A stretch of 33,698 nt of DNA from a virus. Below the pieces are notes generated by a model. That model saw only the letters and a program-made list of their open reading frames with translations. It made no database searches and was not told the origin of the DNA. This document shows, in pieces, positions 18,163 through 32,894 of this stretch. A program made the position numbers and the translations under genes. How positions within the stretch are numbered: position 1 is the first letter of the stretch; the number at the start of each line of letters is the position of its first letter. Where the stretch lies: the IMG/VR virus record IMGVR_UViG_3300007152_000001, positions 1 through 33,698 of that record; one strand, 5' to 3'.

Positions 18163-18353
18163 TCGTCTAAATCCTCTATGTGTTTGGCATAAATGCCGTC
18201 CGTCCAACCAACATGGCACTTTACAACCTTATAAAACATTCTAGCATTATTTTTGTCAGGATAAAAGAACGAGCCTTGTAAATAACCTTCCCAGTCTACC
18301 GTGGATTGTTTTCCGTCCTTTTTTAAGTGTCCGTATATGTAAACTTTTCGCAT
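18159..18353 (-). CDS. Hypothetical protein (64 aa)
   Basis: TAATG coupling to terL and GTGA coupling to the next gene. Confidence 0.5.
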   Translation of the reverse strand: MRKVYIYGHLKKDGKQSTVDWEGYLQGSFFYPDKNNARMFYKVVKCHVGWTDGIYAKHIEDLDE

Positions 18354-19537
18354 TAAAATGGTCGCATTCCTACAAGCTTGGTTCTCATGTACTGCTGGTC
18401 GCCCTCTAGCGCATACCTTTGAGCATCAATAAGGTGGTTAAACGCATCAATCGGGGTCGGCAGACATTCTCCGTTTTTGTCTACCTTCCATTGATAGTTT
18501 AGCATCTCGTCATTAAAATTCGGGCAATCGGGGTGAATGATAATCTCGTCAAACGCTTGCATGAACTTAATACCACTCTCAACGCTTCCTTGCCCCTTCT
18601 TAGCTGAATGTGCGTTAATGCCTAAAGAGCAATACTCCGCCACACTCTTAGGCTCTGCGCTATCACACACGACCACGTCACCCTTGGCGTATGACTTCAC
18701 AAGCGGTGCGCTGTCCTTGTTTAAAAGCTTGCGCTGGTAAATCTCGTCACATATGTAAAGCTTGTTCCTGTGTATGGCACTTCTTACATATGCAAATGGG
18801 TCGGAACTGTAACCCCAGTCAACACCGTGTCGGTATTCGTTAAACTGCTCTTTATCAAACTCTTCAACCTTGAAGTTATCAAACACAAGCCCCTCGCTTA
18901 TACCCAATTCACCCAAGCCATAAACACGCCAAAAGTTGTTATTGCCATCGCCTCGCTTGCTTTCAATCGTGTCTACAATGTGTTGCTCTAGGAACTGGTT
19001 GTCTTTGTACGTTGACTTGATTAAAACGCTTTTGTCGCCCTGCTCTTTTAGTATCTTGTTATGAACCCAAAACGCCGCAGTCGGGTTGTAGTCAATGAAC
19101 ACCGTTTCCCTTGTTCTAATCATTAACTGCTCTGCAATAGGATAGGAAAGGTGGTTCGCCTCGTTCATGTAAAGAATATCCCTACGACCACCGTGTGCCT
19201 TGCCAACCTTGTCAATGGCTATAAAGTTCATCACTCCACCGCTGGGGAATTTAATCTTTTTGTCGGACGTGTTGAAAAAGTCCTCAAACACCAAGCCATA
19301 GCCAGCCATAACGTGAGGCATATCATTTAACACACCAGCCTTTAAGTGAGGGACGGTTAAGCCGACAATATCAATCTGCTTCTTTTTAAGCATCGCAATG
19401 CGTGTGAGTATTTGAAGCGTGCTGAAAGTTTTTGAACTGGATGAGCCACCTTGGTTGATTATATTCCTATAACCTTTCTTGTACTCCGCTACGTTCTTGT
19501 GAAATACGTTTGTCAGCTTTAACTCGACTGTGTCCAT
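18353..19537 (-). CDS. terL: Terminase large subunit (PBSX / Terminase_3 type)
   Basis: Walker A QGGSSSSKT. Nuclease-half pattern VVVCDSAEPKS ... HLIDAQRYAL. Confidence 0.9.
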   Translation of the reverse strand: MDTVELKLTNVFHKNVAEYKKGYRNIINQGGSSSSKTFSTLQILTRIAMLKKKQIDIVGLTVPHLKAGVLNDMPHVMAGYGLVFEDFFNTSDKKIKFPSGGVMNFIAIDKVGKAHGGRRDILYMNEANHLSYPIAEQLMIRTRETVFIDYNPTAAFWVHNKILKEQGDKSVLIKSTYKDNQFLEQHIVDTIESKRGDGNNNFWRVYGLGELGISEGLVFDNFKVEEFDKEQFNEYRHGVDWGYSSDPFAYVRSAIHRNKLYICDEIYQRKLLNKDSAPLVKSYAKGDVVVCDSAEPKSVAEYCSLGINAHSAKKGQGSVESGIKFMQAFDEIIIHPDCPNFNDEMLNYQWKVDKNGECLPTPIDAFNHLIDAQRYALEGDQQYMRTKLVGMRPF

Positions 19538-19541
19538 GGCG

Positions 19542-19943
19542 TTAAATACTGTCTAAATCGTCAATGGCTTCTTTGTCACGGTTATCACGCACAACAATGC
19601 TTTTAACTGTGCTTGAAACTTCCTGCTCTGTTTTGTCCTTCCAACCAAAGTTGTTTTTTAGGTTGAAAATCGAGCCAGTTTGCGCTACACCTGAAAGCAA
19701 CCTTTCTTCTACGCTTTCATGCACCATTTCACGCAATTCTTTTATCGTGTCAAAAAACTCTTCCTTTTTGGAGTAGTCTATAAGCCCCTGTCTGCTCAAG
19801 CCTAAACGTCTTGCAAGCCCTGACATGGTTAAAATCGGGGAAGCTAAATCAGCAATAGCCGCCTTTTGGCATTGTTCTTTGTAATACTCTTCCCACATTT
19901 CAAGTATTTCTTCTTTGCTCTTAAACTTAACTGGCCTTGCCAT
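19542..19943 (-). CDS. terS: Terminase small subunit
   Basis: MARPVKF...LTMSGLARRLGLSRQGL (HTH) ... IFNLKNNFGWKDK signature. Immediately upstream of terL. Confidence 0.8.
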   Translation of the reverse strand: MARPVKFKSKEEILEMWEEYYKEQCQKAAIADLASPILTMSGLARRLGLSRQGLIDYSKKEEFFDTIKELREMVHESVEERLLSGVAQTGSIFNLKNNFGWKDKTEQEVSSTVKSIVVRDNRDKEAIDDLDSI

Positions 19944-20134: not shown

Positions 20135-20163
20135 TTTCACCTCTTGTTTATCCCTTATTATAA

Positions 20164-20190
20164 CAAAAAAAAGCCACCGTTTAAAGTGAC
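20164..20190 (-). terminator. Candidate rho-independent terminator separating early/middle genes from the packaging genes
   Basis: Minus-strand RNA GUCAC-uuuaaacg-GUGGC (one G-U pair) followed by eight U. Confidence 0.5.
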
Positions 20191-20498
20191 TATAACTTAT
20201 ATGCGACCCAAGCGTCCCTTGCAAACTGCATGAAAGGCGAATTTCTGTCTCTTTTGCCACAATCAAACTTCCTGAACTTGGCGTAAACATCAGCGACAAC
20301 TTCCAGCCTCTCTTCAAGCGTTGACCCATCACTCAACTTATTCTGCACCTCTTTTCTAAAAGCGACAGACTTTGAAATGTCGGTGTACTTGCAAACCAAA
20401 ACTTCGCCATGATAGTCGTGTGACTTCATGTGAGGCGGAAAATCTGCGTCAACATGCGACAGCACACTTCCATAATTATCCATCCCAACCATCTTCAT
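20190..20498 (-). CDS. Hypothetical protein (102 aa)
   Basis: The ATG at 20498 is in an ATGA overlap with the upstream stop. Confidence 0.55.
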   Translation of the reverse strand: MKMVGMDNYGSVLSHVDADFPPHMKSHDYHGEVLVCKYTDISKSVAFRKEVQNKLSDGSTLEERLEVVADVYAKFRKFDCGKRDRNSPFMQFARDAWVAYKL

Positions 20499-21563: not shown

Positions 21564-21773
21564 TTAATATTGCTCTTTGTTGTTTGGTGAAACAGTCCCC
21601 TGACCGTTAAGTCTAATCAACTGTGTTGCGTTATCCCTTGATAGCAAGATATCACCGCTGTCAAACACTTGGTCTAGCGTCCCCATAAGTTTAATGCCGT
21701 TTACAAGAAAAACCATGACAGGCTTGTCCAGTAGCGTTTCTAAAAATTCGTTTTCGTTTTCGTATTTGTACAT
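21564..21773 (-). CDS. hfq: Hfq-like (Sm-fold) RNA chaperone homologue
   Basis: EFLETLLDKPVMVFLVNGIKLMGTLDQVFDSGDILLSRDNATQLI aligns with E. coli Hfq [44 protein letters not shown]. The Sm2 YKHAIST segment is divergent. Confidence 0.7.
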   Translation of the reverse strand: MYKYENENEFLETLLDKPVMVFLVNGIKLMGTLDQVFDSGDILLSRDNATQLIRLNGQGTVSPNNKEQY

Positions 21774-22310: not shown

Positions 22311-22516
22311 TTTCTTCTCTCCCAAACTCTTATTTTTAATCCTGACTTTACCATGTACGGCATGCCTATAAACTCAACTCCGTTTACATCAAAAGTGGCA
22401 ACACCTGCCTTGGATGGTGATGTCCAGCCGTATTTTTCGCCGTAAGCTTCATAATACTTTACAAGTTCTGGTATCATATGAATGCAAGAAACGTCACCCT
22501 CGTATATAATCTTCAT
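22280..22516 (-). CDS. Hypothetical protein (78 aa)
   Basis: TAATG-type coupling to the upstream gene. Confidence 0.5.
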   Translation of the reverse strand: MKIIYEGDVSCIHMIPELVKYYEAYGEKYGWTSPSKAGVATFDVNGVEFIGMPYMVKSGLKIRVWERRKCPKQTHTLD

Positions 22517-23232
22517 TAAACACGCTCCTCTTTTCTTGGCATAATCACAGCCGTTCCGTGTTCAACAAATAAAATAATCGGGTCACGGTAGCAAACAAGG
22601 TTGCCATCCTCTAGCATCTTAAACTCTTTTAAGCCCCAATCTTTGAAATGAACCGTAAATTCATCCTGTCCGTTTAAAGCGCTTTCAAGCAACCGTTTCT
22701 CAACACACACCTGACCGCAAAGTCCGCCAATGTTCAAGAATACGTTTTCGCCCTTGGTAATGTTTACTTCGGAAATAGGTGATATTTCCAAAATGTTTTC
22801 CATCGTCTTGATGTTCAAAGTGTCAGAGCGACTGTCTGTTTTTGGCACTACACGCTCCCAATCAGGGAATGTATAGTCAACACCTTCAATTTTCTTGCCT
22901 GTGTGGTCGTAAAAACCTTTCTCAATGCCATCAGGCGCAGTTGCATAATGCAATCTGTGACCATCAGTTGCCACAATCTTAGAGCCATCGCAGTAAACGT
23001 GGTTTAAATATGGACGTTGCAATTCCTTTGAACAAGCCTTGGCAACCCACTCAAAAGCATTCTTAGCCTTTTTAGGCACAGGTGGCAGGAAGTGCGTGTA
23101 CAAATCAGCTAAAAGCGGTTTAGTGCTTTCCGTTGCTTCCTCATACATATTTTCAAGGTGACGGATAAGCTGTTGCTTGGATAGTTTGCCAACCTTTTCT
23201 TTACGTTTATAAGATAATGTGTGTAAATTCAT
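22516..23232 (-). CDS. Beta sliding-clamp (DnaN)-like protein, short form (238 aa)
   Basis: PYLNHVYCDGSKIVATDGHRL matches DnaN YYLNG...VATDGHRL. FPDWERVVPK matches DnaN FPDYRRVLPK. The C-terminal AVIMPRK matches YVVMPMR. AAGGAAG RBS. Confidence 0.6.
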   Translation of the reverse strand: MNLHTLSYKRKEKVGKLSKQQLIRHLENMYEEATESTKPLLADLYTHFLPPVPKKAKNAFEWVAKACSKELQRPYLNHVYCDGSKIVATDGHRLHYATAPDGIEKGFYDHTGKKIEGVDYTFPDWERVVPKTDSRSDTLNIKTMENILEISPISEVNITKGENVFLNIGGLCGQVCVEKRLLESALNGQDEFTVHFKDWGLKEFKMLEDGNLVCYRDPIILFVEHGTAVIMPRKEERV

Positions 23233-23645
23233 CGTTCTTCTTCCTTTTGTTTACTTAAATAGCCCCACACGTTAAAGATGTGCAGAATGCGAGGCTGTTT
23301 AAATAAGCTGGTCTATTCCCAGCAGTCAGCCAAACTGTGTCTTTACATGGAACTTTCTTTGGCATTCCCCATGTGTACTATTTGTGTCGCAGAGCCGTAG
23401 CTTTCCTGCAAGCGTTCTTCACGCCCCAAGCTTCTTTGCTTGTTCAACCGCCGTACAAAGCGAACCTCTTACTTAAAGAAGGGGGCAGGATTTCCCAAGC
23501 GCTATACCTTTCCTGCATGCCCTGCCAGCGTTGCTGACAACTCCGTGGTTGCCCACTGCCTGTTACCAAGCTAAACCTGTCACGTTCACAGGTTCACACC
23601 CCTTCTTTAAATATCCGCTGTTTAACCCCAACGGCAGGGCTGTTA
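23233..23645 (-). ncRNA. Candidate large structured noncoding RNA, family unknown; the strand is inferred
   Basis: No credible ORF across the stretch. Multiple long-range complementary segments, including a 12/12 helix and an interleaved 8-bp helix (see findings). Confidence 0.4.
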
Positions 23646-23816
23646 TTATTTAACTTCGTCTACACCGTAAACTCGGTCATTGGCTACACCGCCTGTCACG
23701 TTCTTAGACTGCTCAACGTGTAGGTATGTCTTAGCTTCGGGGTTGGCTTGACCTTGTTCAAAAGTCATTTGTCCAAAACCTAAACCTAATGCTACTGCCA
23801 AAATAAAACCTGTCAT
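23646..23816 (-). CDS. Small secreted or membrane protein (56 aa; possibly 66 aa if started at the leader ATG at 23846)
   Basis: AAGGAG RBS 8 nt before the ATG at 23816. Signal-peptide-like N-terminus MTGFILAVALGLGFG. Confidence 0.55.
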   Translation of the reverse strand: MTGFILAVALGLGFGQMTFEQGQANPEAKTYLHVEQSKNVTGGVANDRVYGVDEVK

Positions 23817-23835
23817 CTTTATATCTCCTTTATTG

Positions 23836-23881
23836 ATGTTGTTCATGGTTATGTTGTAACCCTTATTTAATGTACTGTCAA
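23836..23881 (-). promoter_or_regulatory. Early promoter cassette, copy C: TTGACA-17-TACAAC, then ATAACC-ATGAACAACATCAATAAAGG
   Basis: Shares a 17-nt element with the copies at 26096-26112 and 29649-29665. Confidence 0.55.
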
Positions 23882-24066
23882 CCCTTAAACTTATATTTTT
23901 TTGCATTTTCTCGCACTACATGCATTTTTCCCGACTTTTCCGCCTTTTGTAGCGTTGTGGCTAATACTTGTCGGTCAACGTCTAAATGCTTTGCAATGTC
24001 TGCCAAACTATCACGCTTGGCAGGGTTGTCTTTTATGTATTGTTTAAATTTCTCGAATATTGTCAT
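23878..24066 (-). CDS. Small winged-helix / HTH DNA-binding protein (62 aa)
   Basis: SLADIAKHLDVDRQVLATTLQKAEKSGKM HTH-like segment. Confidence 0.5.
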   Translation of the reverse strand: MTIFEKFKQYIKDNPAKRDSLADIAKHLDVDRQVLATTLQKAEKSGKMHVVRENAKKYKFKG

Positions 24067-24078
24067 GTGGCTTCTCCA

Positions 24079-24465
24079 TCAAAAGGGCAAATTTTCATCG
24101 TCCTCAAACGCATCATCTTGCGATGGTGACGCTGGCTTTGTTGCGCCATTGTAACCACCTTCCGACTTGCCGCCACGCTGGAAGTCTAGCTTGTCCACGT
24201 TGAGAACGTGCTTTGTGCGCTTCTCTCCGTCCTTTTCCCAGCTTTCCTCACGCAATGCGCCTGTAACGACCAACGCTGTGCCTTTGTCAATGTACTTCTG
24301 CAATGCTTCCGCACGCTTGCCCCATAGCTTACAGGTAAGCCATGTGGTGTATTCGTTGTCCTTTGAACGCTCTGTCGATGCGATGCTAAATTCTAGCAAG
24401 CTTGTGTCGCCAACTTCTTTAAAGTCCGCACGACCCACGTTTCCTGTTGCTGTTGTGATAATCAT
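24079..24465 (-). CDS. ssb: Single-stranded DNA-binding protein
   Basis: OB-fold N-terminus (W..CKLWGKRAE), Gly-rich linker and acidic tail DDAFEDDENLPF. Confidence 0.9.
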   Translation of the reverse strand: MIITTATGNVGRADFKEVGDTSLLEFSIASTERSKDNEYTTWLTCKLWGKRAEALQKYIDKGTALVVTGALREESWEKDGEKRTKHVLNVDKLDFQRGGKSEGGYNGATKPASPSQDDAFEDDENLPF

Positions 24466-24638
24466 TTTTCTACTTTCTCTAGTTGTTTTTCTTTAGCATA
24501 TAAAAACTCTTGACCCTTGTTGCCTCGAACCATCAAAGTTTTTAAATCGCCTCTCCAATCAAATACCTTGACCAAAGTTCCTTCTTTATAGCCACAAATA
24601 GGCTCTTTTATTCTATAAGTTACTCCAACTTTTTCCAT
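24462..24638 (-). CDS. Hypothetical small protein (58 aa)
   Basis: The ATG at 24638 overlaps the end of the NinB-like gene. Its stop overlaps the ssb start (ATGA). Confidence 0.45.
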   Translation of the reverse strand: MEKVGVTYRIKEPICGYKEGTLVKVFDWRGDLKTLMVRGNKGQEFLYAKEKQLEKVEK

Positions 24639-25039
24639 TTTTCTGCCTCTTTTCTTACGTTCTTTGGAGTGTAAAAGCCGCCTGTATTCATAACCCAAAA
24701 GTCTTGCACCTTATCCACTAACTCGACAAAATCCTTAATGGACATCTTTGTCGTGGTTTCAACGCCTGTGTGAACTTTGTTAATCATGTGCACAACGTCT
24801 TTTGTGTACTCCAGCTTTTCGCCTTGTAGCGTGAAATAACAACCAGCGTCAGTCATAAACTTTGCTATATCTTTATTGCACGCCCAGTAAAAGGCATTTT
24901 GTAAGGTGCTTCGCTTTTGAATGTTCTCTTTGACTTGAACTTTCAACCCATGCTTTGTGTTACTCAAACAGCACTTTAGTGTTTGGTAGCACTCCTCAAG
25001 GTCAATGTCCTTTGTTACTAATATTTCCTGTGACTTCAT
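24620..25039 (-). CDS. ninB: NinB/Orf-family recombination mediator
   Basis: RSTLQNAFYWACNKDIAKF matches lambda NinB RSLDQNRKLWACLGDVSRQ. TTKMSIKDFVELVDKVQDF matches TSRMRVGEFAELLELIQAF. Confidence 0.7.
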   Translation of the reverse strand: MKSQEILVTKDIDLEECYQTLKCCLSNTKHGLKVQVKENIQKRSTLQNAFYWACNKDIAKFMTDAGCYFTLQGEKLEYTKDVVHMINKVHTGVETTTKMSIKDFVELVDKVQDFWVMNTGGFYTPKNVRKEAEKWKKLE

Positions 25040-25190
25040 TTCTCTTATCCGTATAAATCATCTGTACGTTGTTTTTAACGGTTTCAAAGTACGTTAGAAA
25101 TCGCTCCCAAGTTTCATCAATCTGTTGGACGCTATCGCAATTGGATAACGCCCTTTCAAGTTGAGTTTCTAGGCTACTTTTCTTGTGCAT
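25002..25190 (-). CDS. Hypothetical protein (62 aa); overlaps both neighbours
   Basis: ORF only; it overlaps the NinB-like start by 38 nt. Confidence 0.35.
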   Translation of the reverse strand: MHKKSSLETQLERALSNCDSVQQIDETWERFLTYFETVKNNVQMIYTDKRNEVTGNISNKGH

Positions 25191-25785
25191 TCTTTGCCTC
25201 TTTTTCTTCCGCCTCTAAAATCGCAAGCTTGTGCTTTGCCAAAACTGTCAGCATTCCAATATGCCGCTTGGCAAGTGGAAGGTCTTTGTAAAACTTCATA
25301 ATACTTCTCAAGTCTTCCGAGTTGTCGCAACGTGAAATATTATCTGCCTCACTCTCAAGGCTAACTCTTGCGCTGTGTCCGTCATCGTCTTCCGTTACCA
25401 ATCCGAGAATTGATAGCAATGCGTATCTTCTGGCGTAGGAAATAGAACTACCAAACGCCTGTGGGTCTGAAAGTTTTTTAAGTTCCATAGGGCAGTCTGT
25501 TTCGTATCGCAACACATCGCCTGTTTTAATGTCCACAAATTCAGTTACAACCAAAACACCAGCACCAGCACCGCTTGTGCTTCTTGTCGGTGGCTGTGAT
25601 ACAAAAACGCCGTGGTCTTCCAAAATTGGGTAAACTGCATCACACACCGCACCAAGCGAGGCATAACGGCTGTTGTGACCTTTAGCGTCCTTCTTAACTT
25701 TGCCGACCTTTCGCTGAACCTCAAAAAAGGCTTTGTAAATTGAAAGGGGAAGTGTGCATTCCCCTGTTTCCTTATCTATCGTCAT
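25174..25785 (-). CDS. erf: ERF-family single-strand annealing protein
   Basis: YASLGAV...PQAFGSSISYARRYALLSILGLVTEDDDG signature. Confidence 0.8.
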   Translation of the reverse strand: MTIDKETGECTLPLSIYKAFFEVQRKVGKVKKDAKGHNSRYASLGAVCDAVYPILEDHGVFVSQPPTRSTSGAGAGVLVVTEFVDIKTGDVLRYETDCPMELKKLSDPQAFGSSISYARRYALLSILGLVTEDDDGHSARVSLESEADNISRCDNSEDLRSIMKFYKDLPLAKRHIGMLTVLAKHKLAILEAEEKEAKNAQEK

Positions 25786-26078
25786 TTAATAATCTCCCAT
25801 GTAAATGTTTTACCGTTGAACTTAACTGTTAGAATTCTTTCATCTTCTTCTTGGTCGTTAAACTCTGTGCGCAAAAATACCGCTTCTTCCCACTCTTCCG
25901 AACCTTGTGCGCCAACTTCATAAGCTGTGTTAGCCTTTGCCTTTTCAATAGCGTCTGCGATGTTTTCAATAAGTTCATCACCAACAGCATCGCTTTCGAC
26001 AAAGTATCCCAACTCTTTAGCATCGGGATAGCCATCAATTTGAGGGTGGAAATATACATCTTGTGGAATATTGCTCAT
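25782..26078 (-). CDS. Hypothetical acidic protein (98 aa); first gene behind promoter cassette A
   Basis: ORF whose stop overlaps the erf start (ATGA). Confidence 0.55.
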   Translation of the reverse strand: MSNIPQDVYFHPQIDGYPDAKELGYFVESDAVGDELIENIADAIEKAKANTAYEVGAQGSEEWEEAVFLRTEFNDQEEDERILTVKFNGKTFTWEIIK

Positions 26079-26082
26079 TTGC

Positions 26083-26141
26083 TTAACCTTTATTTATATT
26101 GTTCATGGTTATAATATAAACACGCTTGACCTAAATGTCAA
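26083..26141 (-). promoter_or_regulatory. Early promoter cassette, copy A: TTGACA-17-TATATT, then ATAACC, then mini-ORF ATG AAC AAT ATA AAT AAA GGT TAA
   Basis: Near-consensus sigma70 hexamers at 26136-26141 and 26113-26118. The conserved element lies at 26096-26112. Confidence 0.65.
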
Positions 26142-26427
26142 ACTCTAAAATAAGGTTAAACGCAATTATTTTTTCCCTTGTGCGTTTTACGGCTTCTTCT
26201 TGGTCGAACCAGTTGTAATCTTGGTGGATTTTGCGGTGGCAAGCTTGGCATAGCGGTATGGTTTCGGTGTCAGGTGCTTTTAAGCCCATGCCCTTAACGC
26301 CACCAATCTTGTGATGCACTTCCACAGGCGTTGTATAGCAAACGTAACAAGGAAGCTTCGCCACGGCTTCCATGTATTTGCGGTTTTTCCTGTGTCCTTT
26401 GGGTGGTTTAAAGTATGTTTTATGCAT
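26131..26427 (-). CDS. HNH/zinc-finger nuclease-like protein (Ref / DUF968-like)
   Basis: LPCYVC...VEVHHKIGG...IPLCQACHRKIH pattern. Confidence 0.5.
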   Translation of the reverse strand: MHKTYFKPPKGHRKNRKYMEAVAKLPCYVCYTTPVEVHHKIGGVKGMGLKAPDTETIPLCQACHRKIHQDYNWFDQEEAVKRTREKIIAFNLILEFDI

Positions 26428-26908
26428 TTCTGACTTTATCCCTTTGCGATACGCACAGCTTATCAAGCTTTGAATAATGCTCCAACATCATGCCGTTAAG
26501 TCCACACGTCTTGACATGGCACTTCTTTTGCTCGTCTGAAAAGTCGCTGTCATCGTCAAGGATAATATAATGCTTTACGGATTTATCATTATCAAACCAC
26601 CGCTCTATCTGCTCGCCACGACTACCCTTAAACCTGTCAGTTTTCCAGTTTGGGTGCAACTGAAAACGACAACCGTTTCCTTTTAGTATCGCACCCATCG
26701 TTCTTCTGTCGTAGTGGTTTCGCCATGTGCTACTTATGACGACTTTGTATCCATATTCGGCACAAACATGGTTTAAAAACTGCACAGCAACAGGGTCAAA
26801 CTGCCCCCATGTACCGCCCACAATCTTTTCATTTGTTGCAACATAAACACGGCTTGAGGTTAAAACACCGTCAATGTCTAAAAATATAATGCCGTTTACA
26901 CTAGCCAT
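26420..26908 (-). CDS. HAD-superfamily phosphatase-like protein
   Basis: Motif I IIFLDIDGVL, then VVISSTWR and ILDDDSD. Confidence 0.7.
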   Translation of the reverse strand: MASVNGIIFLDIDGVLTSSRVYVATNEKIVGGTWGQFDPVAVQFLNHVCAEYGYKVVISSTWRNHYDRRTMGAILKGNGCRFQLHPNWKTDRFKGSRGEQIERWFDNDKSVKHYIILDDDSDFSDEQKKCHVKTCGLNGMMLEHYSKLDKLCVSQRDKVRNA

Positions 26909-27468
26909 GTCCAGCCCCCTATAACAACAGCCCCTAGCACGCCCTCTGTAAGCCTTGCACTTGCTTCGGTTCTCCAATACCTAACACGCAATGGGAAAAG
27001 CAACCCAGCAACGCTACAAGCGACTAGATAAGGCACGCTCCATGTGTTAAGTATAGCGCAAATCATGCAACCAGCGATAACGTAGCGGTATGACATGTGC
27101 CATGATGTAAAGCCTTTGTCGTCTGCTTTGTACCACTTTTCGAGCCAATGCAACATTCTTCTGTAATTGTATAATTGCTTCTTGTTACCAACTTCCTCGC
27201 AAAGCTTTATAACTCTACCGTAACAGTCTTTTTTAATGTGATAATAAACCCAATAAGTCGTTAAACTGCGATAACCACTCAAAATATACGTCAACAATAC
27301 GGCATAAATGCCAAGTGCTTGCCATGCTGTCATGTACTCCAAATAAACATATCCGCATAATATGGTTAAAAGCCCCAAATAAATGTACACGTTCCAGTAT
27401 TTAGGTGCACCCTGTCTACCGTCCATACTCCGCCAAGCGAAGGCTAGTGCTGTTATTAGTTCGTTCAT
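26896..27468 (-). CDS. Polytopic membrane protein (190 aa)
   Basis: Several long hydrophobic segments. ATG at 27468, just after the upstream stop. Confidence 0.55.
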   Translation of the reverse strand: MNELITALAFAWRSMDGRQGAPKYWNVYIYLGLLTILCGYVYLEYMTAWQALGIYAVLLTYILSGYRSLTTYWVYYHIKKDCYGRVIKLCEEVGNKKQLYNYRRMLHWLEKWYKADDKGFTSWHMSYRYVIAGCMICAILNTWSVPYLVACSVAGLLFPLRVRYWRTEASARLTEGVLGAVVIGGWTWLV

Positions 27469-27469
27469 T

Positions 27470-27724
27470 TTATTTCCTTTCATTATCGCCAAAAACAACG
27501 CCATCAATGCGCTTACCATTGTCCATCATGCAAATATATAAAGACACTAAGTGTACCAATGCAAAGCAAACGCCTACTTTATTTACAACATCGAAAGAGC
27601 CATTTACACAGTCAACTATTGCAACAAACAAACCGACAACAGAACCTACAACTGAAAGTCCAAGGCTTATACCTAGCAAAAGAAAATTAAATGCCAAAAA
27701 ATTGTCAAAAATCCTAGTCAACAC
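27470..27724 (-). CDS. Small membrane protein (about 85 aa; start uncertain)
   Basis: Hydrophobic segments FLAFNFLLLGISLGLSVVGSVVGLFVAIV and VGVCFALVHLVSLYI. Confidence 0.45.
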   Translation of the reverse strand: MLTRIFDNFLAFNFLLLGISLGLSVVGSVVGLFVAIVDCVNGSFDVVNKVGVCFALVHLVSLYICMMDNGKRIDGVVFGDNERK

Positions 27725-27989
27725 CTTCCACCTCTTTTCTCGCTTGGTTAATATACGACTTCGCATGTGACACTAGCGCAAGCTTACCGTTGTCGTTAAA
27801 GCTTGTTATGGTTGCTTCTACCATCGCCTCGCTAGGCTCGCCCAGCACCTTTTCTGTGAATTCTGTGATAGTTTTTAGCACGTCTAGCGAATGCTCTTTT
27901 CTAAATCGTGGGTCGTTTTCTGTCTTGTGCAGTTCTTCTATGTCGGCAATTTCTTGCTTTAGACTTGCCATTGCCTCTTGTATTTTCAT
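27714..27989 (-). CDS. Hypothetical protein (91 aa)
   Basis: Clean co-oriented ORF. Confidence 0.5.
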   Translation of the reverse strand: MKIQEAMASLKQEIADIEELHKTENDPRFRKEHSLDVLKTITEFTEKVLGEPSEAMVEATITSFNDNGKLALVSHAKSYINQARKEVEGVD

Positions 27990-28184
27990 TTATTCTTGCT
28001 CCTGTACATATTCAACTGTCCCTATTGTGTCGAAACGGTTTAGCTTTTCTTGAAGGGCTTGCTTAATTATATCGCTATGATGATAAAGCAACGCATCACA
28101 GTTGTCGTAAACATGCTCTCCATCAGGTATTATAAGGTTGTCTAATGCTACCAAAGCCTCTTCAACATCTTTTCTTGTTGTCAT
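27990..28184 (-). CDS. Hypothetical protein (64 aa)
   Basis: Clean co-oriented ORF abutting its neighbours. Confidence 0.5.
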   Translation of the reverse strand: MTTRKDVEEALVALDNLIIPDGEHVYDNCDALLYHHSDIIKQALQEKLNRFDTIGTVEYVQEQE

Positions 28185-28426
28185 TTGTTAAGCCTTTCTA
28201 ATCTTGCTCCAATTTTTGCCTGTTCAAAATCCTTATACCTTTCAAGGTGTGCATAGTGAGTTGCCTCTTTTCTTAAAATCTGCATCTCATTAAGCTCTTC
28301 ATCATCAAAAACTTCAACTGGCAAACCTTGATTGTTTATCTTGCCAACACCTATAAGTTTCTTATTGCTTTTAAGCCACCCAATCTTACCAACTGGTGCA
28401 TTGTTAATATCGACCCATACACTCAC
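28181..28426 (-). CDS. Hypothetical protein (81 aa)
   Basis: Clean co-oriented ORF with an ATGA-type overlap. Confidence 0.5.
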   Translation of the reverse strand: MSVWVDINNAPVGKIGWLKSNKKLIGVGKINNQGLPVEVFDDEELNEMQILRKEATHYAHLERYKDFEQAKIGARLERLNK

Positions 28427-28430
28427 AACC

Positions 28431-28904
28431 CTACTCCCCTTTAATTTTGTTTAATCGATCGCTTTCGCTCTCTTTCATTGTTGCCAATGTTTCTGTGGCC
28501 ATTTCGATGCCATTGTCTAACTCGGCAAGCTTACAAGGCACTAAAGAAGGGTGGCAAGCGCTGTGGCTAACCAAGAGGTCTTCTGTCTTCTTCCTTGCGC
28601 TGGTTAGTGTATCAACCAACTCCTCAACAAGAGCAATAAGCTCCTTGTTAGAAACTTCTAGCTTCTCTACTGATGCCAAAAGCGTTTCGTTGTCCGACAC
28701 GAGCTTGTCGTGTGTATTCACACAATTGACGATGTGTTGTGCGTTTGAAATATCCTTTAAGTCTTCAGATAGAACGCTACTAATCGAGCGGTAGATATTT
28801 TCATGGTCGCCTTTTTCTGAAATATGGTACACAGTCGTTTCGGCTATTCCGTTGTGTTCGAACCTCCAAGGTCTTGGTGTCACGTCTTCTAGCTTGTATG
28901 TCAT
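28431..28904 (-). CDS. Hypothetical coiled-coil protein (157 aa)
   Basis: ATG at 28904 in an ATGA overlap. The longer track version lacks support. Confidence 0.5.
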   Translation of the reverse strand: MTYKLEDVTPRPWRFEHNGIAETTVYHISEKGDHENIYRSISSVLSEDLKDISNAQHIVNCVNTHDKLVSDNETLLASVEKLEVSNKELIALVEELVDTLTSARKKTEDLLVSHSACHPSLVPCKLAELDNGIEMATETLATMKESESDRLNKIKGE

Positions 28905-29239
28905 TTGCTCTCCATTCTCTTTTTCATTTCTTCGGCTTCTCGCAACAAATCGAGCGTTTCTTGTGGCAAACATGTCTGACTATACCTTACACGTTCAATC
29001 AAATCACCAAGCAATTCCACGTCAGGGCGAGGTGGTGTGTATTCTTTGAACTCGTAAAGGTGTAAATCGCAGTCCCATATACATTCAATACCATTTCCGT
29101 CACACCTTGCAAATATATGACTGAAACTGCTTTCATCACTTTTATTTTCAGGCTTACCGCAAAAACCAACGTATTCAAAAACAACTCCAACTTTTATTCC
29201 TTTTGTTGGGGTATACTTCTTATTGTGTTCTAATTTCAT
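28901..29239 (-). CDS. Hypothetical protein (112 aa)
   Basis: Clean co-oriented ORF. Confidence 0.5.
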   Translation of the reverse strand: MKLEHNKKYTPTKGIKVGVVFEYVGFCGKPENKSDESSFSHIFARCDGNGIECIWDCDLHLYEFKEYTPPRPDVELLGDLIERVRYSQTCLPQETLDLLREAEEMKKRMESK

Positions 29240-29241
29240 TT

Positions 29242-29463
29242 CTATTCTTCCTCCACCGTTAGTTTTTCCAAGTCGGCTTTAACATCGCCAAACATTGCGT
29301 CAAAAATATAACCAAAATCGCTGTCAGGCTTTGCGCTTCTGATAACAACTTCCTCTTGCTTTTCGCATTCGCATTTTTCCATGACTTTAAGCTTTTCTTT
29401 TACTTCTTCCATCTTACTCTCTGCCGTTTCAAGCCTGCTTTTTATTTCTTTAATCTTATCCAT
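29242..29463 (-). CDS. Hypothetical acidic coiled-coil protein (73 aa)
   Basis: Clean co-oriented ORF. Confidence 0.5.
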   Translation of the reverse strand: MDKIKEIKSRLETAESKMEEVKEKLKVMEKCECEKQEEVVIRSAKPDSDFGYIFDAMFGDVKADLEKLTVEEE

Positions 29464-29631
29464 CTATCCAGCCCCCACAATCATTCCAACAATCATTAAC
29501 GCCACAAACGAGGCAGTCATTAAAAACGCAACGACTTGCTGTTTAAACCATGCTTGCTTGTAAAATGGCGTGCGTGTGCTGTGCAAGCGAATTGCACCTG
29601 TGCGTAAATCTTTGTTGTATTTATCTAGCAT
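29464..29631 (-). CDS. Small membrane protein (55 aa), below the ORF-track cutoff
   Basis: First ORF behind promoter cassette B. Product MLDKYNKDLRTGAIRLHSTRTPFYKQAWFKQQVVAFLMTASFVALMIVGMIVGAG. Confidence 0.4.
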   Translation of the reverse strand: MLDKYNKDLRTGAIRLHSTRTPFYKQAWFKQQVVAFLMTASFVALMIVGMIVGAG

Positions 29632-29635
29632 ATCT

Positions 29636-29694
29636 TCAACCTTTTTTAATATTGTTCATGGTTATAATATAAACTAACTAAATCAGCTTTGCAA
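29636..29694 (-). promoter_or_regulatory. Early promoter cassette, copy B: TTGCAA-17-TATATT, then ATAACC, then mini-ORF ATG AAC AAT ATT AAA AAA GGT TGA
   Basis: Hexamers at 29689-29694 and 29666-29671. The conserved element lies at 29649-29665. Confidence 0.6.
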
Positions 29695-30075
29695 GTGCCT
29701 TTTGCATATTTTTATAAATTTTTCGATACTGTCGCATAGATAATAAGGCTGACCGTAGTTTTCAACCGTTTCTTGAATGTGCTTTTGTTCTTTGGATTGC
29801 TTGCCGCCCTGCTTTTTTATCGGCTTTCCTGTGGCTTTTGATAGCTTGATGCTTGGCGGTGCTTTTAACTCGATGTGTATCACACCGCCCCTGTGAAATA
29901 TCTTTAGGTCTGCTGTGCCTATCAGCATTCCCTCACGTTCCATCTGCTTTTTGTGGTGCGGCTTCATAGGTGCGCCATTTAAAGATGCCTCTATAATCGC
30001 CACGCTTGGTCTGTACTGCATTTTGAACCAAGTGACGCAATGAACTTGAAGTTTGCTTTCAGCTTTTGACCTCAC
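29683..30075 (-). CDS. VRR-NUC domain nuclease
   Basis: GTADLKIFHRGGVIHIELKAP ... SKEQKHIQE pattern (PD-(D/E)xK core). Confidence 0.7.
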   Translation of the reverse strand: MRSKAESKLQVHCVTWFKMQYRPSVAIIEASLNGAPMKPHHKKQMEREGMLIGTADLKIFHRGGVIHIELKAPPSIKLSKATGKPIKKQGGKQSKEQKHIQETVENYGQPYYLCDSIEKFIKICKRHLQS

Positions 30076-30542: not shown

Positions 30543-31832
30543 TTACCATACTCCATTAACCTGTTCACCGCTTGTGTAAGTCTGCTTTACACCATCAAAG
30601 GACAAATATATCTTTTGGTTTGGTGCGCTGTTGCGTGTCTTAATCATATGACCCACAATTTCAGTTGGCTGGTTAGGAACAAATTCCTCCGTCACCCTGT
30701 CAAGAACAGTAACAGTAAATGATGGCTTAATCATTGCCGAGCCACCCATTATCCCTGACATATCAGGCTTCTTCTTCTTACCGTCCTTATCTTTTTTAAT
30801 CATATCATTGTTAATGTGTGCTATCAAAATCACGCAGATGTTTTGACGCTTCGCAAGCTTTAGGCAAGTCTGCGCAATGTCTTCATTTTTTAAAAATACG
30901 TTGCTCTCACGGTGTGACACGTTTGTGGCACCATCAATCACAATAACGTCAAGTCCACGCTTGTTCTTTTGCTTGGCACTTGCGAGGTAAATGCTCTCCA
31001 GCGTGTCGTTTTCATCGTCTAGGTCTAGGTTTAACCCTGCCAAGCTTCCACCATCGCCCCACACTTTTTGCCATAACTCGTTTTGCTGTCTGCGTTGCTC
31101 TGCCGTTAAGCCGTTTCTGTAAGCTGAATAAGGGAAGCCAGTTTCACTAGAAACAATGCGCTTGATATAATTTTCCTCAACCTCTTCCAGTGAGAAGTAC
31201 CTGACGCCATGCTTCATTTTTGCCATGTTTCTGGCAATCTGCAAGGCAAGTGCAGATTTACCAACGGAAGGGAAGCCAGCGATAATATGCAACTCACCGT
31301 GGAATAATTGCCCCACAGCATCGTCAAAGCTTTTTATGCCTGTATTCATTCCCTTAACCTTACCGTCAGCAACCTTTTTTAGATACTCCCTTGAACGCTC
31401 GCCAAGGTCGCCTTGTTTGGATTCAAGTATGATGCCGTCTGTAAGGCGATTTGAAAGCTTTTGTATTTCTTCGGCTACCTCTTTACCTTTCAACTCACTA
31501 AATCGCTTCAAAATGCCGTTGGCTTCACTCTGCACGCATCTTTTAAGTCTGTACTCCTCTAAAACCCCCCAGCAGTCGTTGATATCGAATGGCGTGTAAT
31601 CCTCAATCAGCTTTTTAATTGTTTCTTTATCGCACCCACGGTCTGCCAGCGCAATCGGTGAAATTTCCTTACCGTTCTCTATAAGCCACAAGCACTCCTG
31701 CAAGATTTTCTTGTGCGCATCAATTGCAAAGTGCTCTTGATATACTGGTCTTGATAAGTGGTGGTAGTCACCCATCATAATATTGATTAAAAAGTTTTCT
31801 TCTGCTTCTTGGCTGTAAAATGTTTTGCCCAT
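30543..31832 (-). CDS. dnaB: Replicative DNA helicase (DnaB family)
   Basis: DnaB N-terminal domain (SQEAEENFLINIM) and Walker A IIAGFPSVGKSALALQIA. 429 aa. Confidence 0.9.
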   Translation of the reverse strand: MGKTFYSQEAEENFLINIMMGDYHHLSRPVYQEHFAIDAHKKILQECLWLIENGKEISPIALADRGCDKETIKKLIEDYTPFDINDCWGVLEEYRLKRCVQSEANGILKRFSELKGKEVAEEIQKLSNRLTDGIILESKQGDLGERSREYLKKVADGKVKGMNTGIKSFDDAVGQLFHGELHIIAGFPSVGKSALALQIARNMAKMKHGVRYFSLEEVEENYIKRIVSSETGFPYSAYRNGLTAEQRRQQNELWQKVWGDGGSLAGLNLDLDDENDTLESIYLASAKQKNKRGLDVIVIDGATNVSHRESNVFLKNEDIAQTCLKLAKRQNICVILIAHINNDMIKKDKDGKKKKPDMSGIMGGSAMIKPSFTVTVLDRVTEEFVPNQPTEIVGHMIKTRNSAPNQKIYLSFDGVKQTYTSGEQVNGVW

Positions 31833-31834
31833 TG

Positions 31835-32557
31835 TTATTTCCTTTTTTGGCTGTTTAGGTTTTTGATTAGTATGTCACGCCATTTCCATTTTGGAAACAT
31901 GCTTCTGCTTGTTGCGTTTTGGTTATAGAAAAGCTTTAAAGCCTCTTTAGCATCGAACCAGTTGAAAGATTGGTCAGGGAACATAACCTTTGCTGTGTCG
32001 ATAAACTCTTTAGGGCAACCTTCTTGAAACTCTTCCCACGTTACACCCCAAAAAGTGACTGGAACTCGGTCATCGTTATCTCGTGGTTTTAAATCCTTAA
32101 CAGTCAAAACACCTTTTTCTTTTTTTTCTTGAACTGTGTTTGAACTGGTATGAACTGGTATAGGTGGGACGGTTTCGTCTATTCGATGGGACGATTTCGT
32201 CTTATCGATGGGACGATTTCGTACTATGTTTAATTTCAATAACTTATCAGCATCGTAAGAGTACCAGCAAGTCTTATCATATCCAACCTTATTGTAATTA
32301 CCCTTCAACAATACACCATCTTTTAAAAGCTTGGAAATTATGCGCTTAACTTGCGTTGAGGAAAAGTAAGGCATTAAAGAACTCCAAGCCTCGTGGCTGT
32401 TGTAGCACCAATATTTATCGTCATAAAAGTGCTTGTCGTTTGCTTTGTTATTCTCGCACCAATAAATGATAGTGCTTAAAACAATACTCTCTTTTACACC
32501 GTACTCCATTGCAAGGTGTATGTTAAATGAATGCGTGTTTGGCAAAATGTCTACCAT
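31835..32557 (-). CDS. Replication initiator (winged-helix, lambda O analogue)
   Basis: Sits immediately upstream of dnaB. The origin-like iterons and an A/T run lie inside its coding sequence. Confidence 0.6.
   Translation of the reverse strand: MVDILPNTHSFNIHLAMEYGVKESIVLSTIIYWCENNKANDKHFYDDKYWCYNSHEAWSSLMPYFSSTQVKRIISKLLKDGVLLKGNYNKVGYDKTCWYSYDADKLLKLNIVRNRPIDKTKSSHRIDETVPPIPVHTSSNTVQEKKEKGVLTVKDLKPRDNDDRVPVTFWGVTWEEFQEGCPKEFIDTAKVMFPDQSFNWFDAKEALKLFYNQNATSRSMFPKWKWRDILIKNLNSQKRK
32141..32230. repeat. Origin-like repeats: 2 x tgaactggta (32141-32160), then 3 x 22-bp iterons tgggacg[g/a]tttcgt...
   Basis: Iteron copies at 32165-32186, 32187-32208 and 32209-32230. They are flanked by a T-rich run at 32113-32130. 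Confidence 0.75.
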
Positions 32558-32723: not shown

Positions 32724-32744
32724 AAAAAGGGGCAATTAAGCCCC
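32724..32744 (-). terminator. Rho-independent terminator after the 49-aa gene
   Basis: Minus strand reads GGGGC-ttaatt-GCCCC followed by TTTTTGCTTTT. Confidence 0.75.
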
Positions 32745-32894
32745 TCATTTCGTTAGTTCGGCAAAGGTTACACCAGTTTGGTAAACCGTACCCTCAAAGA
32801 CAACATTGTCGTTTTGGTCGTAAACAACAGCGTGGTCTAGCTTGGTGTGCTTCCATAGTGAAAAGCCACGTTTTTCGCATACTTTAACAAGCAT
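32745..32894 (-). CDS. Small protein (49 aa) in its own transcription unit, below the ORF-track cutoff
   Basis: AGGAG RBS. Product MLVKVCEKRGFSLWKHTKLDHAVVYDQNDNVVFEGTVYQTGVTFAELTK. Promoter upstream and terminator downstream. Confidence 0.5.
   Translation of the reverse strand: MLVKVCEKRGFSLWKHTKLDHAVVYDQNDNVVFEGTVYQTGVTFAELTK

Follow-up and report, generated by a model that had tools for sequence, protein, structure and literature searches.

A tandem double-hairpin module between two genes of a lambdoid-type phage operon

A gene-free region in a one-directional phage genome

We analyzed the viral record IMGVR_UViG_3300007152_000001 of IMG/VR over its positions 1 to 33,698 (the window, that is, the whole stretch of 33,698 nucleotides), and within it the gene-free region at 23233-23645, which an earlier note made from the letters alone had proposed to be a single large structured RNA with a pseudoknot. 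The phage is of the lambdoid type, and the region forms a non-coding leader that separates two genes on its sense (minus-strand) transcript. It consists of two tandem copies of one short RNA module, separated by a fast-changing spacer of ~145 nt.

Every gene of the window lies on the minus strand. In the order of transcription, they encode an O-like initiator (31835-32557), DnaB (30543-31832), Erf, NinB, SSB, a small winged-helix protein and a 56-aa protein. Then comes the region of interest, followed by genes for a clamp-like protein, small proteins, an Hfq-like protein (21564-21773), the terminase (18353-19537) and the structural proteins. The large terminase shares 63% identity with its counterpart in a lemur-associated virus.

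The 413 nt of the region are non-coding, as the earlier note had claimed: all six frames of 23200-23700 are interrupted by a mixture of TAA, TAG and TGA codons, and the open reading frames (ORFs) called mechanically in the region have only 30-66 aa. Since the stop types are mixed in every frame, a recoded gene was also rejected. The G+C content of the region is 0.49 vs ~0.38-0.44 in most adjoining intervals. The region would be transcribed as part of the operon.

Judged from the sequence, the true upstream gene is probably a small membrane protein of 56 aa (23646..23816, minus strand) that starts at an internal ATG at 23816 with its own ribosome-binding site (RBS) GGAGAUAUAAAGAUG, rather than the 86-aa ORF at 23646-23906. 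Its homologues have 55-56 aa, and the longer ORF runs into the upstream winged-helix gene. On the other side, the downstream gene (22516..23232, minus strand, 238 aa) encodes a beta-clamp-like protein that matches PHROG processivity-factor families and whose homologues have PF02767. The last 18 nt of the region (23233..23250, minus strand) are the junction with this gene and its RBS leader AACAAAAGGAAGAAGAACG, a leader that also precedes a gene for a DUF4942 methyltransferase in two relatives, L002 and L042 (individual related contigs are given by such numbers below).

Two copies of one module

The module has a simple organization. A small G+C-rich hairpin comes first. After 1-2 nt it is followed by the octamer UAUUUAAA and by a long hairpin that has UAUUUAAA/UUUAAGUA at its base. 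The conserved unit spans ~75-85 nt. All parts are given here on the minus strand, from the upstream to the downstream gene.

The first copy is made of the small hairpin h1 and the long hairpin module A. The hairpin h1 (23615..23634) folds as CCGUUG / loop GGGUUAAA / CAGCGG. The first octamer (23606..23613) forms the base of the long hairpin and is the left copy of an 8-bp direct repeat. Together they lie in the most conserved part of the region, a block of 43 nt, AGCCCUGCCGUUGGGGUUAAACAGCGGAUAUUUAAAGAAGGGG, at 23599..23641. Module A (23470..23613) is closed by a 15-bp helix, UAUUUAAAGAAGGGG/CCCCUUCUUUAAGUA, with the upper stem GAAGGGG/CCCCUUC, and its top is expanded into a branched, lineage-specific domain of ~112 nt. 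The interior enclosed by the closing helix (23485..23598, 114 nt) is predicted to form five hairpins, two of which, GCUUG-GUAA-CAGGC and GUGG-GCAA-CCAC, have GNRA tetraloops.

Then comes the hypervariable spacer (23324..23469), which contains the hairpin S3 (ACAUGGGG/UUCCAUGU, 23345-23376). The second copy follows it and is made of the small hairpin h1' and the long hairpin H0. The former (23307..23323; GCUGG / GAAUAGA / CCAGC) is followed by UUAUUUAAA and is weakly terminator-like: it is the sole hairpin that passes a simple terminator scan (23323-23307, 5 bp, tail UUAUUUAAAC), H0 and module A being followed by A-rich or mixed sequence. The second octamer (23298..23305) is the base of H0 and the right copy of the direct repeat. 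H0 itself (23251..23306) has 9 bp, a C.A mismatch, 10 bp and a 16-nt loop, with the upper stem CAGCCUCGCAU/GUGUGGGGCU. It ends just before the RBS of the next gene, 8 nt from the Shine-Dalgarno sequence of the clamp-like gene.

When aligned to a covariance model built from the 85-nt core (R1), 23249-23332 of the window fits as another complete copy of the unit, h1' taking the position of h1. At a larger scale, an internal tandem duplication of a ~107-nt unit is not significant (score of 37; shuffle mean 27.4, maximum 50).

The loop of H0 (23262-23275, minus strand) contains UCUUUAAC, which matches the ribosomal boxA antiterminator motif at 8/12 positions and is complementary to the h1 loop GUUAAA. 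We treat both as coincidences, neither being conserved in L011, L002 or L042.

Two long helices account for the folding signal

The minus strand of the whole region folds at -143.6 kcal/mol (z = -4.5), and the plus strand at -114.4 kcal/mol (z = -2.5). The earlier note had expected the structure on the gene-sense strand, and the G-U pairs agree with this. When the region is divided, module A with its closing 15-bp helix has z = -5.7 and H0, the strongest local hairpin of the region, z = -4.9. The interior of module A alone (z = -1.0) and the 150 nt at 23318-23467, which cover most of the spacer (z = -0.7), are ordinary. The structure signal therefore comes from the two long helices, not from the interiors.

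The complementary pairs that the earlier note had listed are all present at their places. Most of them, the pairs of 5-8 bp, are nonetheless of the kind that any sequence of this composition would show: a perfect helix of at least 12 bp occurs in 1% of the shuffled sequences, and perfect 8-bp helices occur ~1.2 times per shuffled sequence, which puts the proposed 8-bp pseudoknot pairing and the helices of 5-7 bp at chance level. Just two helices stand above chance, the 15-bp helix 23470-23484/23599-23613 (I1; 15 nt, 93% complementary) and the 19-bp helix of H0, which the earlier note had overlooked. The pseudoknot pairing (I9, 23519-23526/23633-23640) is complementary at 8/8 positions. Its 5' partner, GCCCUGCC at 23633-23640, is conserved in L002 and L011, where its 3' partner on the RNA, GGCAGGGC (23519..23526, minus strand), is absent. 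The comparison does not support the pseudoknot. We also found no complementarity above chance between the region and other parts of the window.

A mosaic among close relatives

The relatives were reached only via the neighboring proteins, and the family comprises fewer than 10 contigs. Eight related metagenomic phage contigs display the region as a mosaic. The closest one, L015, has the window's own sequence, with 99.8% identity. L011-L014, whose flanking genes are 92-95% identical to those of the window, have only a ~85-nt version of the region: h1 (CCGUUG / GGGUUAAA / CAGCGG), one unpaired A, H0 and the RBS of the next gene. More precisely, in L011 the first UAUUUAAA octamer is joined straight to the upper stem of H0, which gives one fused copy of the module, with two stem-loops over ~74 nt and a 1-nt linker. 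Relative to L011, the window has ~308 extra nt, immediately preceded by one TATTTAAA and closed by another; these two are the exact 8-bp direct repeats. A close relative thus has the element in a form reduced to one module, and the interior and the spacer would be mostly dispensable.

The more distant contigs tell the same story of conserved stems and changing contents. In L002, the 43-nt block is 100% identical over its 43 nt vs ~74-75% for the flanking genes; the first 36 nt of the block, through UAUUUAAA, are also identical in L011, and there is one substitution in L016. L002 conserves the 3' arm GCCCCCUUCUUUAAGUAA and H0, while ~100 nt inside the long stem and a spacer of ~40 nt are unrelated to those of the window. 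In the place of h1', it has a different 8-bp hairpin, GCCGAGUG/CACUUGGC, likewise followed by UUAUUUAAA. L016 begins as L002 does and continues with an unrelated interior of ~100 nt; the contig ends inside the element. L005 (~67% identical) has a single copy and no H0. In this contig, the h1 stem reads CCGUCU/AGGCGG: both members of two pairs differ, and the loop retains its GGGUUAA core. This hairpin is followed by a short hairpin with a GAAGG/CCUUC stem (interior of ~36 nt), ATTTAAA and the clamp-like gene.

L042 is ~93% identical overall and its neighboring genes are 93-99% identical. Its spacer has only 49% identity to that of the window, the first ~90 nt being non-homologous, and the pairing of S3 is kept. 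Module A is 96.6% identical, with four structure-neutral substitutions: a U-A to U-G change, one linker base, the tetraloop change GCAA to GAAA, and one triloop base. The h1'+H0 part is 94.6% identical and h1' is conserved. The gene that follows the element in L042 is a DUF4942 methyltransferase in place of the clamp-like gene.

Across the family, both arms of the module A stem are kept in L002 and L042, and its GAAGG/CCUUC core is kept in L005. H0 was found in L002, L003, L011-L014, L042 and L015. The cargo after H0 varies: a clamp-like gene in the window, a DUF4942 methyltransferase in L002 and L042, and two small ORFs in L011. Neither the interiors nor these cargo genes track the phylogeny of the flanking genes. 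The unrelated or 49%-identical sequences found among close relatives show that the interior and the spacer turn over fast. No genes are called in the gap of L002, L015 and L042, and tblastx searches with the inserts against all fetched loci matched only orthologous non-coding regions. These results speak against a decayed protein-coding gene, as the relatives have no intact ORF at the same place and there is no translated similarity.

Signs of an RNA structure on the sense strand

The preference for the sense strand is shared by the relatives. Sense and antisense folding energies (in kcal/mol) are -143.6/-114.4 for the window, -129.9/-96.2 for L042 and -102.9/-84.8 for L002, and the stems hold G-U pairs that become A.C mismatches on the other strand. 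In the alignment of H0, which has 5 distinct sequences, 96% of the cells are paired, and the three variable pairs are all one-sided wobble changes between G-U, G-C and A-U that pair only on the sense strand. Compensatory double changes affect two pairs of h1 in L005, two pairs of S3 when the window is compared with L042, and one pair of H0 in a further phage, L046, described below; each was seen only once. The outcome in the relatives is mixed: parts of the region are conserved as an RNA would be (pairs that differ by G-U only, the compensations in h1 of L005, the change of GCAA to GAAA in L042), and statistically supported covariation was not obtained. We consider that these comparisons provide moderate evidence, short of proof, for an RNA structure on the sense strand.

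An H0-like hairpin in an unrelated phage

A scan of IMG/VR with the exact pattern of the 3' arm of H0 led to L046, a phage whose similarity to the window, besides the hairpin, is restricted to a weak match in 19596-19937, just upstream of the large terminase gene. It has an H0-like hairpin of 23 bp, with a model score of 34.8 bits (E = 7e-6) and z = -6.0, preceded by a small hairpin of 6 bp. The hairpin lies directly upstream of a gene for a DnaD-like replisome organizer, ~1.1 kb from a divergent early control region. By sequence, the H0 hairpin thus occurs in another phage lineage, which suggests that the module moves between contexts, always just upstream of a gene start. Among 80 other loci whose DnaD-like genes are related to the one in L046, none has such a hairpin.

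Searches for known families

The element could not be assigned to any RNA family, in agreement with the earlier note. Searching the whole window with the covariance models of Rfam 15 gave no match at the gathering score, and a search of 23100-23800 with E up to 10 gave four chance-level matches (12.9-19.8 bits vs cut-offs of 42-80). ARAGORN found no tRNA or tmRNA in the window, and BLAST searches of the region against phage and plasmid collections gave no match. Scans of IMG/VR, JGI metagenomes and GTDB genomes for exact or degenerate patterns of the conserved 5' block and of the 3' arm gave chance matches only (L001, L006-L010, L017, L018), and a loose AT-rich two-arm pattern gave at least 119 chance matches, none of which fits the covariance model. 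The clamp-like protein as a single query retrieved no loci from IMG/VR or GTDB; as an alignment, it retrieved 20 distant loci, all of them without the element.

We also considered several specific identities. Integron attC sites, boxA/nut sites, DNA uptake sequences and a kissing interaction between the loops of h1 and H0 were dropped, as the motifs are imperfect or are not conserved in the relatives. The unfiltered R1 model, applied to 24000-30000 of HK022, gave scores of at most 10 bits and none at the put sites, hence no similarity to putL or putR. No conserved sigma-70-type promoter was found in the region, and the conserved block has no acceptable -35/-10 spacing. No described family includes the element, which we class among the intercistronic structured RNA modules of phage operons.

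Neighboring genes and signals

The Hfq-like gene that the earlier note had pointed out 1.5 kb downstream is confirmed. Its product (21564-21773, minus strand) matches the Pfam Hfq family with E = 2.8e-6 and 27.3 bits, for a cut-off of 27, and there are counterparts at 4001-4204 in L042 and 4096-4299 in L002. Our search of the literature on phage Hfq-like proteins gave nothing relevant. Rof, an Sm-like homologue of Hfq, inhibits Rho (PMC10491184). By analogy, the phage Hfq-like protein might affect transcription termination rather than small RNAs.

The clamp-like protein contains the motif IVATDGHRLH. It falls short of the length of a full three-domain clamp, and its matches are confined to the PHROG processivity-factor families. 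A homologue in a Litchfieldella prophage (L039, 3396-4684) adjoins an ArdA anti-restriction gene, and L011 has a Lar-domain gene ~3 kb further downstream of the slot. The DUF4942 protein that occupies the slot in L002 and L042 is an N6-methyltransferase. The slot after the element looks like an accessory or anti-defence hotspot.

Two other sites resemble terminators. At 20157-20191 (minus strand), a terminator-like hairpin (20191-20172) with a strong U tract (AGTCACTTTAAACGGTGGCT TTTTTTTGTT) overlaps a good promoter-like site, TTTAAA-17-TATAAT with a TG, ~600 bp upstream of the large terminase; this site may be the early/late boundary. At 32727-32746, a hairpin that is terminator-like on both strands (GAGGGGCTTAATTGCCCCTT TTTGCTTTTA) lies just upstream of the O-like initiator gene, where lambda has tR1. 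Upstream of the 56-aa gene, 23885-23850 (minus strand) has a perfect -35 box TTGACA, 17 nt and TACAAC; since this is not conserved in L002, it is probably not a promoter that the group shares.

Finally, a junction motif, TTTAAGTAA(A/C)..ACAAAAGGA(A/G), made of a stop codon context and an RBS, is found at several gene boundaries (23233-23259 in the window, 1700-1731 in L002, 3765-3785 in L011). It may be a place of cassette exchange by recombination.

Discussion

Our preferred reading, which we hold tentatively and regard as possible rather than probable, is that the element is a set of cis-acting mRNA hairpin modules that control processing, stability or elongation ahead of a swappable accessory-gene cassette. 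The modules would act in cis on the long phage mRNA. Their near-perfect stems of 15-23 bp (15 bp in module A, 19 bp with one mismatch in H0, 23 bp in L046) would be RNase III-type processing sites and end-protecting hairpins, and they would set the stability or the expression of the downstream cassette, be it the clamp-like gene, the methyltransferase or the small ORFs. The main alternative effect would be on transcript elongation. That the stems are processed or protective is suggested by analogy with phage hairpins of this geometry.

Several observations weigh against this reading. RNase III recognition is not predictable from sequence. The 43-nt block is conserved at the level of its sequence, which a simple stability hairpin would not need, and its identity in L002 (100% vs ~75% for genes) points either to a sequence-specific partner or to recent recombination. 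In L042, a C-to-A change in H0 creates an A.G mismatch. The alignment of the 5 distinct H0 sequences has no double-sided pair change and gives no formal covariation support, and each of the compensatory changes in h1 and S3 rests on one sequence.

If the element is indeed a cis-acting RNA signal, the double-hairpin unit is an unclassified element outside Rfam that marks the entry to a swappable accessory or anti-restriction slot (clamp-like, DUF4942 methyltransferase and Lar-containing cassettes) in uncultured phages. It would then offer a way to study how these phages regulate or shield their long one-directional transcripts. It also calls for some caution: the self-complementarity of a gene-free stretch can result, as it does here, from two long stems and a duplicated junction sequence, not from one large fold.

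The element could instead be a processive antitermination RNA like HK022 put or Tn916 canT: its nascent double-hairpin unit, or the entire multi-hairpin region, would bind the transcribing polymerase, so that downstream terminators are overridden and the single long operon is read into the late genes. We regard this main rival as unlikely. The core of L011, with its two stem-loops, its one-base linker and its ~74 nt, has the layout of put (PMC9378689, PMC8632103), and Tn916 has a cis-acting antiterminator of 452 nt with multiple hairpins (PMC11658703). The conservation of 43 nt at the sequence level hints at a macromolecule that recognizes the block specifically. The genes share one strand, terminator-like sites occur at 32746-32727 and at 20191-20172, the latter ~3 kb downstream of the element, and the unit of L046 lies in a rightward early operon before a replication gene, at about the place of nutR/tR1 in lambda. 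However, the core covariance model gives nothing at putL or putR of HK022, and h1 and H0, which adjoin each other in the L011-type core, lie ~300 nt apart in the window. The element is also ~8-9 kb downstream of the replication genes and past the first terminator-like site, hence not promoter-proximal.

The feature might instead be one of the DNA. The conserved octamers and hairpin bases would then be the boundaries of a recombination junction where phage modules are swapped, or the ~300-nt segment would be a small non-autonomous mobile insertion with an 8-bp target duplication, and the folding would be a by-product. We find this a little harder to accept. The ~308 nt in excess of L011 are bounded by the exact direct repeats TATTTAAA, as an insertion with a target-site duplication would be, the insert of L005 ends at ATTTAAA, and the motif TTTAAGTAA(A/C)..AAAAGGA recurs at other gene junctions in the relatives. 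Moreover, the descent of the interiors and of the downstream cargo genes differs from that of the flanking genes. Yet the 8-bp TATTTAAA on both sides of the segment missing in L011 is explained equally well by a deletion or unequal crossover between the copies as by an insertion. The segment has no terminal inverted repeats, its ends, GAAGGGGUGUG... and ...AGACCAGCU, not being inverted copies, and there is no second copy of the ~300-nt segment in the window, in the phage and plasmid collections or in the fetched loci, which total ~1.3 Mb. The insert is similar to its flanks at both ends (h1' to h1, and the stem of module A to H0), which fits a tandem duplication or unequal crossover better than transposition. 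Besides, strand-asymmetric G-U pairing is unexpected for a purely double-stranded DNA signal.

The presence of the Hfq-like gene brings in a trans-acting RNA. Module A and the spacer, ending at h1' and its U-rich tail, might form a stand-alone or processed small RNA that partners with the phage Hfq-like protein and acts in trans, with the hypervariable spacer as the part that recognizes targets; this model seems doubtful to us. All three long-form phages that could be compared (window, L042, L002) have the Hfq-like gene, and it was not found in the 9.5 kb analyzed of the one short-form locus (L011), a co-occurrence that rests on four contigs. The hairpin h1' followed by UUAUUU is terminator-like, and L002 has the same tail at the same place after a different hairpin, but this terminator would be weak, with 5 bp and an interrupted U tract, and the searches gave no conserved promoter. 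Of the two GNRA tetraloops in module A, one changes from GCAA to GAAA in L042, yet the folding z-scores of the interiors are ordinary and the region has no above-chance complementarity to the rest of the window.

A bolder form of these models deserves no more credence. Module A and the hypervariable segment of ~90 nt would be a new phage RNA that is cut from the early transcript and partners with the Hfq-like protein, the conserved hairpins being the scaffold and the ~90-nt segment an exchangeable target-recognition cassette; or else the whole region would be a new canT-like RNA that reprograms RNA polymerase.

We are equally skeptical of the idea that the region has no function and is debris of decayed genes and of junction sequences repeated by cassette exchange. 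The spacer and the interiors turn over fast and fold no better than shuffled sequences, and the region can be reduced to ~85 nt, all of which one would expect of debris. Against this, no relative has an intact ORF there and translated searches of the fetched loci with the inserts find nothing. In L002, the 43-nt block and the stem arms have diverged less than the neighboring genes, and the H0 hairpin is common to an otherwise unrelated phage.

As to one large, globally folded RNA of ~410 nt with a pseudoknot, the z of -4.5 for the whole region on the sense strand, the 8/8 complementarity interleaved with the 15-bp helix and the G+C content above that of the flanks are outweighed by a pseudoknot helix at chance level that lacks its GGCAGGGC partner in L002 and L011, by the loss of ~3/4 of the length (~308 nt) in a 92-95% identical phage, by interior and spacer sequences that have z-scores of only -1.0 and -0.7 and are exchanged or non-homologous in L002, L016, L005 and L042, and by the lack of a common long-range fold between window/L042 and L002 and of any Rfam match, so that the comparative data largely refute this reading and leave it very improbable.

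Comparison with known systems

Hfq-dependent small RNAs are encoded in prophages. The element resembles them in being an intergenic non-coding locus in the nin-like region of a lambdoid-type phage, with an Hfq-like gene near and a candidate 3' end marked by a hairpin and its U-rich tail. It differs by the weak terminator, by a candidate RNA that is larger than typical and by the absence of a detected promoter in the region.

The junctions between modules of lambdoid phages have conserved boundary (linker) sequences, and small insertions resembling miniature inverted-repeat transposable elements (MITEs) are known. As in these cases, short conserved junction motifs surround exchangeable segments and an 8-bp direct repeat flanks the extra segment. 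Unlike them, the element lacks terminal inverted repeats and multiple copies, and its strand-asymmetric pairing and the conservation of both stem arms point to RNA rather than to a DNA linker or a MITE.

Among antitermination RNAs, the 452-nt canT of Tn916, conAn2 of pLS20 and the EAR RNA of Bacillus are, like the element, large non-coding regions with multiple stem-loops and a specific orientation. Like the element, canT is part of a mobile element's long operon with a single direction of transcription, and terminators lie beyond it (PMC11658703). Those systems belong to Gram-positive conjugative elements or to host operons, and most of the length of the element appears dispensable in a close relative.

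The put RNAs (putL and putR) of HK022 are cis-acting antiterminators of a lambdoid phage, and the terminator read-through that they cause depends on the beta-prime zinc-binding domain of RNA polymerase. They share with the element a double hairpin of ~65-75 nt, which in the L011 form has one unpaired base between the stem-loops, a location on the sense early transcript of a lambdoid-type phage, and no obvious dedicated protein gene nearby. They differ from it in that there is no sequence or profile similarity, the element is far from the early promoter, the hairpins of the window are ~300 nt apart, and the unit is duplicated, each tandem unit keeping a small hairpin beside a long one.

Finally, hairpins processed by RNase III are known from the early mRNA of phage T7, and from the N leader and sib of lambda. 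In the element, unlike in these hairpins, the stem base UAUUUAAA/UUUAAGUA is conserved in sequence and a small upstream hairpin always accompanies the long stem. The likeness lies in near-perfect stems of ~20 bp with an internal mismatch, located between cistrons and right before an RBS, and in paralogous copies that share sequence.

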